Shown here: piece by piece, positions 6,518 through 22,789 of the stretch
Position numbering within the stretch: position 1 is the first letter of the stretch
Layout of the letters: each line of letters opens with the position of its first letter
Source of the DNA: Laetmonice hystrix
Lineage: Eukaryota
Direction of reading: 5' to 3'
Assembly: GCA_965235115.1 (NCBI GenBank)
Contig: OZ249436.1
Coordinates: forward strand, 2,172,001-2,236,000
DNA length: 64,000 bases
The notes under the pieces: generated by a model
Database searches by the model: none
Told to the model about the DNA's origin: nothing
What the model saw: only the letters and a program-made list of their open reading frames with translations
Position numbers and translations under genes: made by a program

Positions 6518-7219
6518 TCCGAACCGGGACGTCTACATGTACCAGAACCGAAGCTATGGAAGCCGCGAGTTTAGTGATCATTATGACGACAGCAGGCAGC
6601 ACGGTTATAGGGACATCAGACCGGGCTATGTCGACAGGGATCAAGAACTTTATGGGCGGGACTCTCCGGGCTATGACCGATCAGATCTGGGCTATGACGG
6701 GCGGGACTCACCGGGGAGACATAGCCAGGACCGGTTCTATGACAGAAGAGACCCTGCAGGCTGTAACAATAGGGACGCTGACTATGGTAGTCGAGGACCT
6801 GACTATAGTAGTCAAGGAGAAGATTATGACAGTCAAAGATATGACAATGATAGTCGAACCCATGACTATTACAGTCGAAACCATGATTATGATAGTCGAA
6901 ACAACCGGTCGCCAGATTATGATAAAGATTACGATAAAGACTATGATAAGGACTATGATAAGGACTATGATAAAGACTACGATAAAGACTATGATAAAGA
7001 CTATGATAAAGAATACGATAAAGACTATGATAAAGACTATGATAAAGACTATGATAAAGACTATGATAGCCGTGACCCGGAGTTTGGTAGTCCATTGTAT
7101 GATAGAGAATACGACAGTAAAGACAGTTACCGAAACCATGATAACTATCCTAATAGTGGCACCTATCAAGGCAAGGACTCGTACCCCAGAGACGACTATC
7201 AGAGCCGAGACCCATACAA
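6518..7219 (+). CDS. unc-13: Large internal coding exon (702 nt), D/Y/R/S-rich low complexity with 13 DYDK-type repeats
   Basis: Acceptor cactttcag|T, donor TACAA|gtaagt, phase 2/2, open throughout. Differences between repeat units are almost all synonymous. Confidence 0.8.
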
Positions 7220-9002: not shown

Positions 9003-9104
9003 AAACAGCGGTGGCCAGGACGCGTACACGTCTGCGGGTGGTAGCCCCATGGACAGTCGTATGTCCTCCTTCAGCATGAGTCGGCAAAGTACACAGGACT
9101 ACAG
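9003..9104 (+). CDS. unc-13: Internal coding exon (NSGGQDAYTSAGGSPMDSRMSSFSMSRQSTQDY)
   Basis: Acceptor actcctcag|A, donor TACAG|gtaaat, 102 nt, phase 2/2, in frame with the flanking exons. Confidence 0.8.
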
Positions 9105-17940: not shown

Positions 17941-18514
17941 TTGTAGGGTCATGTTGGGTATAGGCGCCACCCATACTAAACCTATTGTAGGATCATGTTG
18001 GGTATAGGCGCCACCCATACTAAACCTATTGTAGGATCATGTTGGGTATAGGCGCCACCCATACTAAACCTATTGTAGGATCATGTTGGGTATAGGCGCC
18101 ACCCATACTAAACGTATCGTAGGATCATGTTGGGTATAGGCGCCACCCATACTAAACGTATCGTAGGATCATGTTGGGTATAGGCGCCACCCATACTAAA
18201 CGTATCGTAGGATCATGTTGGGTATAGGCGCCACCCATACTAAACGTATCGTAGGATCATGTTGGGTATAGGCGCCACCCATACTAAACGTATCGTAGGA
18301 TCATGTTGGGTATAGGCGTCACCCATACTAAACGTATCGTAGGATCATGTTGGGTATAGGGGTCACCCATACTAAACGTATCGTAGGATCATGTTGGGTA
18401 TAGGCGCCACCCATACTAAACGTATCGTAGGATCATGTTGGGTATAGGCGTCACCCATACTAAACGTATCGTAGGATCATGTTGGGTATAGGCGCCACCC
18501 ATACTAAACGTATC
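17941..18514. repeat. Minisatellite, 44-bp unit, 13 copies, ending about 20 nt before the CaM exon
   Basis: cgtaggatcatgttgggtataggcgccacccatactaaacgtat. Confidence 0.96.
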
Positions 18515-18533
18515 TGTTTGTTTCACTCCATAG

Positions 18534-18693
18534 TCCACACGGCAGCAGCCAGATGTCACAGCAGAGTACTCAAGGCTACCCCAGTGATGTCAACACCGAT
18601 ATGTATGACGTCATGGTTAATCCCGAAATGCCATCGCCAGCCCGAATTCGCTGGATTGGTGCCTTTCAAAAGGTCTGCGCGAAGCTCAATGAA
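18534..18693 (+). CDS. unc-13: Coding exon carrying an Unc13/Munc13-type calmodulin-binding motif (PARIRWIGAFQKVCAKLNE)
   Basis: Acceptor tgtttgtttcactccatag, donor GAA|gtaagt, phase 2 in and 0 out. W-x3-F-x2-V spacing matches Munc13-1 RAKANWLRAFNKVRMQLQE (recalled sequence). Confidence 0.85.
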
Positions 18694-19145
18694 GTAAGTA
18701 CTCCCTTTGTTTACACCCTACCTGACCACAGTATATTATAATGTTCTCTGTTAGCTAGCAGTGCATTGTTTACATCAATGAGCAGTCGGTGTTGATCTGT
18801 TGAAATGTTTTGAGTGTTTTAGCGAACTTTCCTGGTTTTGTTCATTGTTTCCTCATCACCATTGTCGCCATCAATCATCGATATTTCAGGGACATCATCA
18901 AGTTTTTGTTGTTATTCGGATCCTAGAGTTGACATCTTTGTATGACCTGGATGTAACCTAAGCTTCTATTTGGTGACCTATTGTCCATGGTATCCCAGAG
19001 TTCCATCCTCTACTTCCGGTTGTTCCCGCTGGCTGCCGTTGATGAGTTCCGTCTATGAGTTTACTCGTCGAAGCCTGCAGTGTTGGCCTGTAGCTCTCCT
19101 TGTCATACTCCTGTTGGAAACCCCAATACCTCAGTGTTTGTCTGG

Positions 19146-19600
19146 CTTGTATCCACCCTGGGCAGTATACCCTGTAAGGTGACTGTTGGGGGATGAAACG
19201 ACTGCTATTTGTTTCAGGTTGACATACAGGTTGTGGTAGTATAAGTATGTGATACTTACCTTGTATCCACCCTGGGCAGTGTACCCTGTAAGGCGACTGT
19301 TGGGGGATGAAACGACCGCTATTTGTTTCAGGTTGACATACAGGTTGTGGTAGTATAAGTATGTGATACTTACCTTGTATCCACCCTGGGCAGTGTACCC
19401 TGTAAGGCGACTGTTGGGGGATGAAACGACTGCTATTTGTTTCAGGTTGACATACAGGTTGTGGTAGTATAAGTATGTGATACTTACCTTGTATCCACCC
19501 TGGGCAGTGTACCCTGTAAGGCGACTGTTGGGGGATGAAACGACTGCTATTTGTTTCAGGTTGACATACAGGTTGTGGTAGTAGTATGTGATACTTACCT
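19146..19600. repeat. Tandem repeat, 114-bp unit, about 4 copies
   Basis: cttgtatccaccctgggcagtgtaccctgtaagg...gtgatacttac. Confidence 0.95.
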
Positions 19601-20156
19601 AGGAACTCCAGGGACACCATGTTCAAATTTCAGGTTCAAGCGATCAGCGAAAGTATTTTTATAATGGACTGGAAAGATATGTTTCTGTTGTTCTTGCTTA
19701 CTCCGATTCTGCTGCCATATTTGGACATACCCTATGATCTATAAATAGATTACTGCTAGTTCCCAGCTCGCGCTGGCTTCAGAAAATAGCGGACGGGCCG
19801 AACGGTAACTCTTGGCTGAACTCCATTTTTAAAATACTTTTAACAATGTTACAAAAGGTAACGTGTTGGATCTCCTACAAGTTCTAAGACTCCACGACAT
19901 TTACCCACCGGACTTTGTACCCCTGTGAATCTCGATCTCAACCCGGATCAGTTGTTACCCCGCAAACAAGTTTTCCATCCAAAGGCAACTGGTGTAAAAC
20001 ATGACAGGCGACTCGAGAAGGGCACATTTAGGAGTATTCCTCTGAGAGAAGCTTTATCTATTTTTTAACCCGTTGTGTCGGCTGGATTTGTTGTGTACCG
20101 ATTTGAAGTTGTGACACGTTTATGAAAACAACCCCCAGCCTTGCCATCTGAGCGTC

Positions 20157-20428
20157 ACCTGGGAGATATAGAAAGTTAGTTGAAGTCTGAGGGACATCTG
20201 GGAGATATACAAAAGGTTAGTTGAAGTCTGAGGGACATCTGGGAGATATACAAAAGGTTAGTTGAAGTCTGAGGGACATCTGGGAGATATAGAAAGGTAG
20301 TTGAAGTCTGGGGGACATCTGGGAGATATACAAAAGGTTAGTTGAAGTCTGAGGGACATCTGGGAGATATACAAAAGGTTAGTTGAAGTCTGAGGGACAT
20401 CTGGGAGATACAGAAAGGTAGTTGAAGT
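20157..20428. repeat. Minisatellite, about 40-bp unit, about 6 copies
   Basis: ttgaagtctgagggacatctgggagatatacaaaaggttag. Confidence 0.92.
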
Positions 20429-20908
20429 AGCTAACATTATTAATGAGGTTTCACAGACAAGTATTGATCGACAAAGCTAGGTTTATATACGTCTTTGTGT
20501 ATTGATCGACTGAGCTAAATTTATATACGTCTGTGTGTATTGGAGTTAGGAATACCGAGTGAGCATTGAGAGGATGTGATTAGGTTTAGGACAGTTGTTA
20601 TAACAAAAGAATCAATCGAATAAAAATACGAAATCAGAACAACTTCCGGAGAACCTGGTGGGAGGTTGTTGTTGAAGTAGGCGGCTGTCTACAGGGTTAT
20701 TGCGACGTGTTGCACAGTTAGCGTGGCTGCGTATGTCAGTACGGGCCATCTGAGGGGGCGGGAGGGATGCTGTCCCCTACGAGAACAAGATTACATGTAC
20801 ATGTATTGAATATGCCAAGAATATTGAATAAACAAAATTACTGACATGCAGGTGGCACAATACAGATGAGTGAATACATTTAGTCGTGATGTTAACAGGG
20901 GAAAATAT

Positions 20909-21491
20909 CCCCCAACTGTACAGTAGTCCTGTCATATGTATACAAAACTACCGGTAGTACCCTCCCCCCAACTGTACAGTAGTCCTGTCATATGTATACA
21001 AAACTACCGGTAGTACCCTCTCCCCAACTGTACAGTAGTCCTGTCATATGTATACAAAACTACCGGTAGTACCCTCTCCCCAACTGTACAGTAGTCCTGT
21101 CATATGTATACAAAACTACCGGTAGTACCCTCTCCCCAACTGTACAGTAGTCCTGTCATATGTATACAAAACTACCGGTAGTACCCTCTCCCCAACTGTA
21201 CAGTAGTCCTGTCATATGTATACAAAACTACCGGTAGTACCCTCTCCCCAACTGTACAGTAGTCCTGTCATATGTATACAAAACTACCGGTAGTACCCTC
21301 TCCCCAACTGTACAGTAGTCCTGTCATATGTATACAAAACTACCGGCAGTACCGTCTCCCCAACTGTACAGTAGTCCTGTCATATGTATACAAAACTACC
21401 GGTAGTACCCTCTCCCCAACTGTACAGTAGTCCTGTCATATGTATACAAAACTACCGGTAGTACCCTCCCCCCAACTGTACAGTAGTCCTG
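20909..21491. repeat. Minisatellite, 56-bp palindrome-rich unit, about 10 copies
   Basis: actgtacagtagtcctgtcatatgtatacaaaactaccggtagtaccctctcccca. Confidence 0.96.
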
Positions 21492-21976
21492 CCGTGCTGT
21501 GGTGTCACCGAATACTGACATCTGTATACTGGCCCCACAACGTGTCAATTAAAGCGGCCATATCCTCCGAGATTTGTAGGTGACCTCCTCGTGCTGTCAG
21601 TGTGTCCACGGTACGGGTAGATAACACTGACAGCGGTCTATAACTGACAATAGAACGTTGCTTCACAGCAAACAGGTGATCCTCACTGCTGACGGGTATA
21701 GGGGGAAGTAGGCCACCTGTAGGTAAATTATGGCATAGCTAACCGGGTCACAGGCGGGATGACCCTGAGATTTTCTCGTCTAGAAGATCAACTGTAAGAG
21801 TGTCCCGAAAAGGACCAGTGGAATAAAAACAGGTAGGTAAGGGTGCACGCCCATTGGGGCAGACAGAAGGAGGGGGTGATTAGGGGGTATTAGGGGAGGG
21901 AGATTAGGAGAGGGTGTATGAAGAGGAAGTCAGAAATAAAAGAGGACATGCATTGAGGGAGGTAGTGAAGACAGTG

Positions 21977-22050
21977 ATGGGTGATCTGTTACTGCTGCCC
22001 ACGTTAGTGAGGGGCGTATCGTGCCGCCCACCGCTCCCACTGTCAGCCAG
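21977..22050 (+). CDS. Candidate alternative first coding exon (MGDLLLLPTLVRGVSCRPPLPLSA)
   Basis: ATG at 21977 with an in-frame TAG upstream at 21905; strong donor CAG|gtaagc; its phase 2 exit matches the acceptor at 22372. Confidence 0.3.
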
Positions 22051-22371
22051 GTAAGCAGTTCCCAGCCTCATTACCGTGTGACACTCATATCTTACCTGAG
22101 GCAGGTGCCCGTGTGTCCAGCCAGTGTCCACTAGTTGCCTATGTACAGGTCCCGGCAGCGTGTGGCCGGCTGCTCGCCCCAGGATGCTATCTCACCGTAC
22201 CGTTATCCGGCCTTCATATACCCGGAGACGGCCATGATTGACAGCGTGTGATCACCTCGGAATATTGTCTGCACTCAGCCTAATGGATCAGTCGACAAAT
22301 ACACTCAGCTGTAGACAGCTATGAAGTGATCATGTCTGTATATACCCAACAGTGACTTGATACATTCCCAG

Positions 22372-22789
22372 GCGGAGCTGCCCAAAGTGTCAAGAAGTTG
22401 CACATTTCCCAATGGATCCCGAGTTAGCGGGTAGTTTCCTGATGATGGGGCTGTTGTCGCCCATGAAGGCGGTCATGTTCCCGGCCAAGCCCCCACCAGT
22501 CCAGTTTGACAGCGGGTTGAGGACGCCTAGGGCTCGCAGTATGAGTGACCTTCTGACGCTTAATGACGCTCCATCCATGGTGCCCCTTGCAAACAGTCTT
22601 CTCGTACCCCAGACACTGCGACAGCTGACGCTTCGTAAGAGTCACACCGAGGTCAATATGGCGGCATTCATACGGGATCAAGAACTGCCTTTTCTTCAAG
22701 AGTTAAAAAAGGCCAAGGAATCAAAGGTCGAGGTCAGCCTCAGAAATGTCCCTGAGGTCACGGCAAGGGTCATGTGGATGAATCTAAAG
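22372..22789 (+). CDS. Alternative coding exon (418 nt; RSCPKCQEVAHFPMDPE...TARVMWMNLK), probably isoform-specific for unc-13
   Basis: Acceptor tacattcccag|G, donor AAG|gtaggc. Non-repetitive, protein-like open frame. Phase 2 in and 0 out, identical to the CaM exon. Confidence 0.65.

Follow-up and report, generated by a model that had tools for sequence, protein, structure and literature searches.

The window analysed here, that is, the whole stretch of 64,000 nucleotides at G000:C1:2172001-2236000 in an assembly of 627 Mb and 35 contigs, lies within an unc13 gene, and behind the exon for the canonical calmodulin-binding site it holds a 139-codon exon (22372-22789) which, judged by its homology and variants, is a real, conserved and unannotated coding exon. 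This exon probably forms the N-terminus of a short Unc13 protein that would be made from an intronic promoter, without the C2A domain and without the canonical calmodulin site. The exons on which the argument turns are listed below; window-based positions above 64000 were converted to C1 by adding 2172000.

9003..9104, + strand: Unc13 linker exon ending with the RQSTQDY repeat, phase-2 donor (tblastn with Lingula Unc13, 61% over 23 amino acids, E 0.40)
18534..18693, + strand: canonical calmodulin-binding exon, phase 2 in and 0 out (tblastn with Lingula Unc13, E 7e-8)
21977..22050, + strand: candidate first coding exon, ATG with a purine at -3 and G at +4, donor CAG/GTAAGC, phase 2 (proposed from its donor strength)
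22372..22789, + strand: alternative 139-codon exon with an in-frame ATG at 22412 (Met14), phase-0 donor AAG/GTAGGC (homology, variants)
C1:2353187-2353251 (window-based 181187-181251), + strand: shared 65-nucleotide exon, phase 0 in and 2 out (accepted by its ending, splice sites and phases)

The host gene of all these exons is the neuronal Unc13/Munc13. The exons for C1, C2B, MUN and C2C follow in order 190-230 kb downstream (window-based 215294-250377, 58-100% identity per exon in tblastn with Lingula Unc13), with the MUN domain (PF06292) at C1:2407234-2419192 on the same strand, and C2A exons lie upstream at C1:1983673-2158679, with 62-82% identity to the matching sequences. The Unc13 identity proposed in the initial annotation thus holds, with C1-C2B-MUN in place behind the exons in question. 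The Lingula query matches 18529-18693 (E 7e-8), 9034-9102 weakly (E 0.40) and then 208313 onward to 250377. When 11263 segments were scored with a profile built from 12 Unc13 calmodulin sites, exon 18534-18693 alone reached significance (E 1.7e-7), and its helix, read as a calmodulin site from the outset, has W1-F5-V8-L12, a net charge of +3 and 29.4 bits on the profile. Position 26 of the site is Gly in the in-silico product instead of a hydrophobic residue, and a hydrophobic residue at this position is lost in some species (PMC9282427). A PDB search with the calmodulin exon alone gave no hits. As a separate observation, a 44-nucleotide tandem repeat (13 copies, 17943-18514) ends 20 nucleotides before the acceptor of this exon and may supply its branch point. 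The acceptor ranks only at the 75th percentile by a splice-site matrix for which 27 acceptors and 24 donors of this unc13 gene, a few of them probably mis-picked, served as the training set.

The coding status of 22372-22789 is carried by homology, variants and codon usage. In a search against 1.84 billion representatives, the only matches at E<=0.001 are P0186 (1e-20, 52%) and P0187 (4.5e-9, 41%), of which P0188 is a near copy; all three come from ENA as gene calls without a name, and the contigs that bear them measure 0.37 to 5.5 Mb. P0186 aligns to the last residue of the exon and continues with Val, as if its frame read into a GT donor at the same place, so that the second exon, for which conservation had been set as a test, is conserved across sequences with its donor end kept. 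The predicted start of P0187 is one residue off Met14 and nothing ahead of Met14 is conserved in the alignment, with the caveat that gene callers choose such starts and that the upstream parts are unseen. Constraint on the coding frame is also seen in contigs of one sample, probably the source animal, which run unbroken through introns and were used for variants only. Among the listed variants, 22633, 22648 and 22705 are synonymous and 22373 (Arg>Trp) lies ahead of Met14, in a tally that covers all differences of two covering contigs and 4 of the 5 in the third contig; the three of three synonymous changes behind Met14 give P 0.012, for a split at Met14 chosen after seeing the data, and three of four in the whole exon give about 0.04 by hand. 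Indels are confined to the flanks (22136, 22811), with none inside the exon. By codon score the exon, which is single copy in the genome, ranks third among 767 stop-free stretches, behind two frames of a 955-codon exon described below.

That the frame is open by chance, or that this is decayed sequence whose splice signals are accidental, could be suspected from the weak acceptor at 22372 and from the six + strand stop-free runs of at least 139 codons in 92 kb of unmasked intron (three belonging to the 955-codon exon, one being 22372-22789). Such a reading is very improbable and already largely refuted by the 1e-20 match with its conserved end, the synonymous bias, the placement of the indels and the codon score. 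Further searches added no relatives: a profile search of near-length proteins returned the same two matches only, among 8000 scored, a metagenome scan gave 143 pattern hits with none confirmed, an atlas search nothing at 0.9 or more, and Pfam two hits only on the 139-codon exon, both under the cut-off, and no match for P0186 or P0187.

Two motifs in the exon are conserved; its most conserved block is KxVMFPAKP.

22529..22543, + strand: conserved RxxSM motif, residues 53-57 (4 of 4 aligned sequences, three of them independent)
22631..22660, + strand: conserved [LM]RKSxxE[VI]N[MV] motif, residues 87-96 (4 of 4 aligned sequences, three of them independent)

We take the first to resemble a possible CaMKII-type phosphorylation site and the second, presumably, an AMPK/CaMK-family site. 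The RxRxxS motif (RARSMS) pointed out initially is present, but in one of the four aligned sequences, and the part conserved in all of them is the RxxSM core. A second calmodulin site had also been suggested for the end of the exon, at TARVMWMNLK; the string exists, but it scores -2.2 bits against 29.4 for the canonical helix, has Trp-Lys-Ala at positions 1-5-8 and a net charge of -1, and the proposal is not supported. A Met-anchored 1-5-8 pattern does begin one residue before the Trp, but the 139-codon peptide contains 14 such windows.

All four exons in the window have AG/GT ends, and their coordinates, phases and frames agree with the initial annotation. The calmodulin exon (160 nucleotides) and 22372-22789 (418 nucleotides) both enter in phase 2 and leave in phase 0, and splicing in silico keeps the junctions 9104>18534, 9104>22372 and 22050>22372 open through the next two shared exons; either exon can therefore follow 9003-9104, whose donor stands at the 99.8th percentile, and 21977-22050 can feed the second in frame, both as predicted. 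Inclusion of both leads, also as predicted, to a stop 20 codons into the second, and skipping of both shifts the frame. A linker profile, built on the ~25 residues that homologues have between the calmodulin helix and the PPEHNPFY exon, gave no significant hit; the shared 65-nucleotide exon is its fourth hit (E 5.5), its end resembles the mollusc linker, and its acceptor and donor are both in the top percentile of the gene-trained matrix. It is separated by 162.5 kb from the calmodulin exon upstream and by 158.4 kb from 22372-22789, and at least three phase-0 donors (18693, 22789, 79648) face its one acceptor, the exon being open for all three. This acceptor is tandem (CAG GAG, window-based 181187/181190), which would add or drop one Glu.

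Two options had been posed for this locus, of which the intronic alternative N-terminus is favoured here, and the mutually exclusive switch that headed the initial annotation is less likely. In an internal either/or switch, 9104>22372 would replace 9104>18534 to give a C2A-positive, calmodulin-negative Unc13, with double inclusion removed by nonsense-mediated decay. Acceptor 22372 shares phase 2 with donor 9104, the product is open to the shared exons, the acceptor scores at least as high (83rd percentile) as the one before the calmodulin exon (75th), and double inclusion meets an early stop, all of which speaks for such a switch. However, the phase match has a one-in-three chance of arising at random and is equally explained by 21977-22050, and the first 13 codons, unconserved in the alignment, carry the sole non-synonymous variant. 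Duplicated either/or exon pairs usually consist of related exons of similar length. The two exons here have the phases and the frameshift of a classical mutually exclusive pair, but they are not homologous (no profile match), differ 2.6-fold in length and lie 3678 nucleotides apart, which leaves neither a duplication origin nor a steric lock. Among retrieved proteins bearing a C2A signature and the C1 lead-in, 57 of 57 carry the calmodulin motif and none lacks it, although these isoforms are largely redundant and come from molluscs and Lingula, with no annelid among them. The switch is hence regarded as unlikely.

By comparison, mollusc isoforms with an N-terminus of their own join right after the calmodulin exon (P0144, P0149, P0159, P0169, P0171, P0173, P0176, P0181; database entries from Haliotis, Pomacea, Biomphalaria, Candidula, and Gigantopelta), and a Lineus isoform joins one exon later. 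An intronic promoter is favoured over a switch because of this junction, the lack of homology between the two exons, the conservation beginning near Met14, the 57 calmodulin-positive isoforms, and a third N-terminus facing the same acceptor. A zone that might hold such a promoter can be delimited.

21675..22050, + strand: candidate zone for an intronic promoter or first exons (the five strong donors in the 2.3 kb of unmasked sequence between the calmodulin exon and 22372-22789 all fall here)

This donor cluster is a soft sign that suggests first exons, and the donor of 21977-22050 is the strongest between the calmodulin exon and 22372-22789. The candidate first exon is single copy and has no homologue, and its codon score (-0.9) is uninformative, as the score is unfit for short exons (the shared 65-nucleotide exon has -2.5); the variant 21974 G>A, at -3 of its ATG, leaves a purine. 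The predicted isoform has two start candidates, namely 21977, with good context and a strong donor, and 22412, near the P0187 start.

According to this model, a short Unc13 transcript would start from a promoter within the 162-kb intron that follows the calmodulin exon, and would enter 22372-22789 via 21977-22050 or be translated from Met14 (22412). Donor 22789 would be spliced to the shared exon at C1:2353187-2353251, followed by C1-C2B-MUN-C2C, while transcripts from the upstream promoter would take the calmodulin exon and skip 22372-22789; as the 955-codon N-terminus would use the same acceptor, the choice would be at least three-way. The short protein would have no C2A, and hence neither RIM binding nor the C2A homodimer, and no canonical calmodulin helix, and its N-terminus would be short and mostly unstructured, with two conserved kinase-like motifs. 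Neurons firing the intronic promoter would make an Unc13 with the full priming core that lacks RIM tethering and calmodulin-driven facilitation. By analogy with UNC-13S and Unc13B, the short form might sit further from calcium channels and support slower or looser release, perhaps tuned by phosphorylation.

Several observations weigh against a short isoform from an intronic promoter, besides the make-up of the 57 isoforms. All junctions are predicted from genomic sequence, and the shared exon was accepted by its ending, splice sites and phases on a non-significant profile score (E 5.5). No CpG enrichment marks a promoter in the candidate zone. P0186-P0188, presumed to be linked to unc13 in their own species, could not be placed in an unc13 gene, so synteny is not established. 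A scan for calmodulin exons confirmed one locus among 246 (L043), whose calmodulin exon has the same phases; the 139-codon exon profile found no match among 745 segments in the 10 kb behind it, beyond which the exon could lie. Finally, comparison of the 139-codon exon with 21 other alternative Unc13 N-termini revealed no similarity (best E 0.31).

Some of these points would suit a coding exon of a nested same-strand transcript that is never joined to unc13: the matches P0186-P0188 are without known context, L043 has no such exon within 10 kb, the shared acceptor is 158 kb away, and none of 325 longer Unc13 candidates holds the exon, which is a weak negative, as isoforms hide inside clusters. 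In contrast, the donor phase is that of the calmodulin exon and the 955-codon exon, in the unmasked 1-215 kb only 22372-22789 and that 955-codon exon give a strong coding signal, the former is single copy, and its position is where other protostomes keep alternative first exons. Moreover, none of ten long frames tested has a Pfam match. A nested gene is accordingly held to be quite improbable.

The third N-terminus is encoded further along the same intron.

C1:2248784-2251648 (L018:2784-5648; window-based 76784-79648), + strand: 955-codon alternative N-terminal exon, ATG context AAAATGG, phase-0 donor (top codon score)

Its product is acidic and of low complexity, begins with MGNTYS and ends with a basic Trp-containing helix (W1, I5); Pfam gave no match. 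The tail looks like that of arthropod B-type proteins, but a profile of eight such tails gives -4.4 bits, so homology is not supported. A strong acceptor at window-based 76667, upstream of the ATG, suggests a non-coding first exon ahead of it. Met-Gly starts occur at 21977 in the window, at the 955-codon exon (L018:2784) and in P0144, P0149, P0173 and P0181, with an internal Met in P0159 and P0169, and the Met-Gly N-termini of C2A-less mollusc forms have Lys at position 7. These starts, with Lys7 where present, presumably fit the N-myristoylation consensus. Among the papers listed in literature searches, outside which most subscription papers fall, none deals with a lipid-anchored or myristoylated Unc13, with the isoforms of annelid unc13 or with the pair of linker exons described below, and neither do passages of PMC6025963 and PMC12084633.

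Acceptor 22372 might in addition be used by transcripts from the upstream promoter, which would yield a RIM-binding, C2A-positive Unc13 with the calmodulin helix swapped for a kinase-motif cassette. This is improbable, and the combination is absent from all homologues retrieved; if true, three N-termini (two with Met-Gly and a possible myristoyl anchor) and the duplicated linker exons would amount to at least eight priming proteins from one gene.

The architecture proposed for the short isoform is not new, as the intronic-promoter strategy is known from molluscs, nematodes, flies and mammals. In Aplysia, unc13 gives four isoforms A-D from intronic promoters, including one truncated form without a calmodulin site and another, Ac-unc13-C, whose putative site is divergent (Orvis et al. 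2022, PMC9282427). The gene studied here, especially when compared with Ac-unc13-C, is alike in that one gene would have several intronic-promoter N-termini, only one of them with C2A and some without or with an altered calmodulin site, and related snail isoforms join right after the calmodulin exon; the snail N-termini show no sequence similarity to the 139-codon exon, however, and the form described here is known from genomic sequence alone. In C. elegans, the UNC-13S promoter lies between exons 13 and 14 (intron 13) with one exon of its own, exon 14, which is skipped in UNC-13L (PMC3743133), and the M domain inhibits release (PMC11991699). UNC-13S/UNC-13MR (exon 14, M domain) likewise has an N-terminal exon of its own, which directly follows the last L-specific exon, is left out of the long form and is joined to the shared C1-C2B-MUN-C2C region, with no C2A in the product, but it differs in sequence and length (259 amino acids there, 126-164 here), and inhibition by the M domain is demonstrated there. 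Drosophila Unc13A and Unc13B place calmodulin-positive and calmodulin-negative N-termini, Unc13B lacking the site (PMC8762327), on one C-terminal part, and the 955-codon exon would be the closer analogue of Unc13B, but flies have no C2A form and homology of the 955-codon tail to the B-type is unsupported (-4.4 bits). The mammalian gene for ubMunc13-2 and bMunc13-2 gives C2A-containing and C2A-less products (PMC9282427), but bMunc13-2 has a divergent yet real calmodulin site, and no calmodulin site is supported in the 139-codon exon.

Further features of the gene lie outside this argument.

6518..7219, + strand: Asp/Tyr-rich Unc13 linker exon, phase 2 in and 2 out (open frame, AG/GT ends, phase suited to 9003)

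It matches Lingula Unc13 weakly (tblastn E 0.18) and holds a 12-nucleotide coding tandem repeat of about 12 copies, and in L043 a 520-codon Asp/Tyr-rich frame precedes the calmodulin exon at a similar position. At the PPEHNPFY exon, a 62-nucleotide tandem repeat at C1:2380020-2380320 (L031; window-based 208020-208320) comprises 4-5 copies of the acceptor and the first ~35 bases; behind each of the decoy acceptors that it creates stands a donor-like word, GTATGT. Between C1 and C2B, two 107-nucleotide exons with the same phases (C1:2394138-2394244 and 2395163-2395269; L032; window-based 222138-222244 and 223163-223269) cover the last part of the linker together with the beginning of C2B; one version is basic, like Munc13-1, the other is acidic, and they are a true duplicated either/or pair. 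Database isoforms from Lingula, Pomacea, Biomphalaria, Haliotis and Gigantopelta use one version or the other, arthropods have both types, and the gene models P0031 and P0173 hold two in tandem. The acidic version shares an HID-x-L motif with arthropods, which suggests an old protostome switch; mollusc second copies score no closer to the acidic type. The pair may be the less described feature of this gene.

Tandem repeat makes up ~44% of the 264 kb studied. A tree of 17 Unc13 cores places this gene beside Lamellibrachia and Ridgeia, both tubeworms (89/97, not starred), and Owenia elsewhere, so the source animal appears to be a lophotrochozoan and probably an annelid. Elsewhere in the genome, MUN-domain genes at C13:8074516-8087193 and C18:14613364-14613561 are presumably relatives of CAPS or Unc13-4/BAIAP3, and matches for EF-hand pairs cluster on contig C5 at several places from 3.4 to 23.9 Mb (about one-third of 69 matches), which suggests an expanded calmodulin-like family.

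The N-terminus of an Unc13 protein determines the site of vesicle priming and the way in which use alters release. A C2A-positive, calmodulin-negative form, if it existed, which is unlikely, would be a natural isoform in which RIM tethering is uncoupled from calmodulin-driven plasticity. If the short isoform proposed here is right, what is probably an annelid would join the groups that use intronic promoters for Unc13. Its N-terminal module bears no relation to those already described and is conserved between this gene and at least two further sequence clusters, and the residues kept in them would suggest regulation by kinases instead of by calmodulin.

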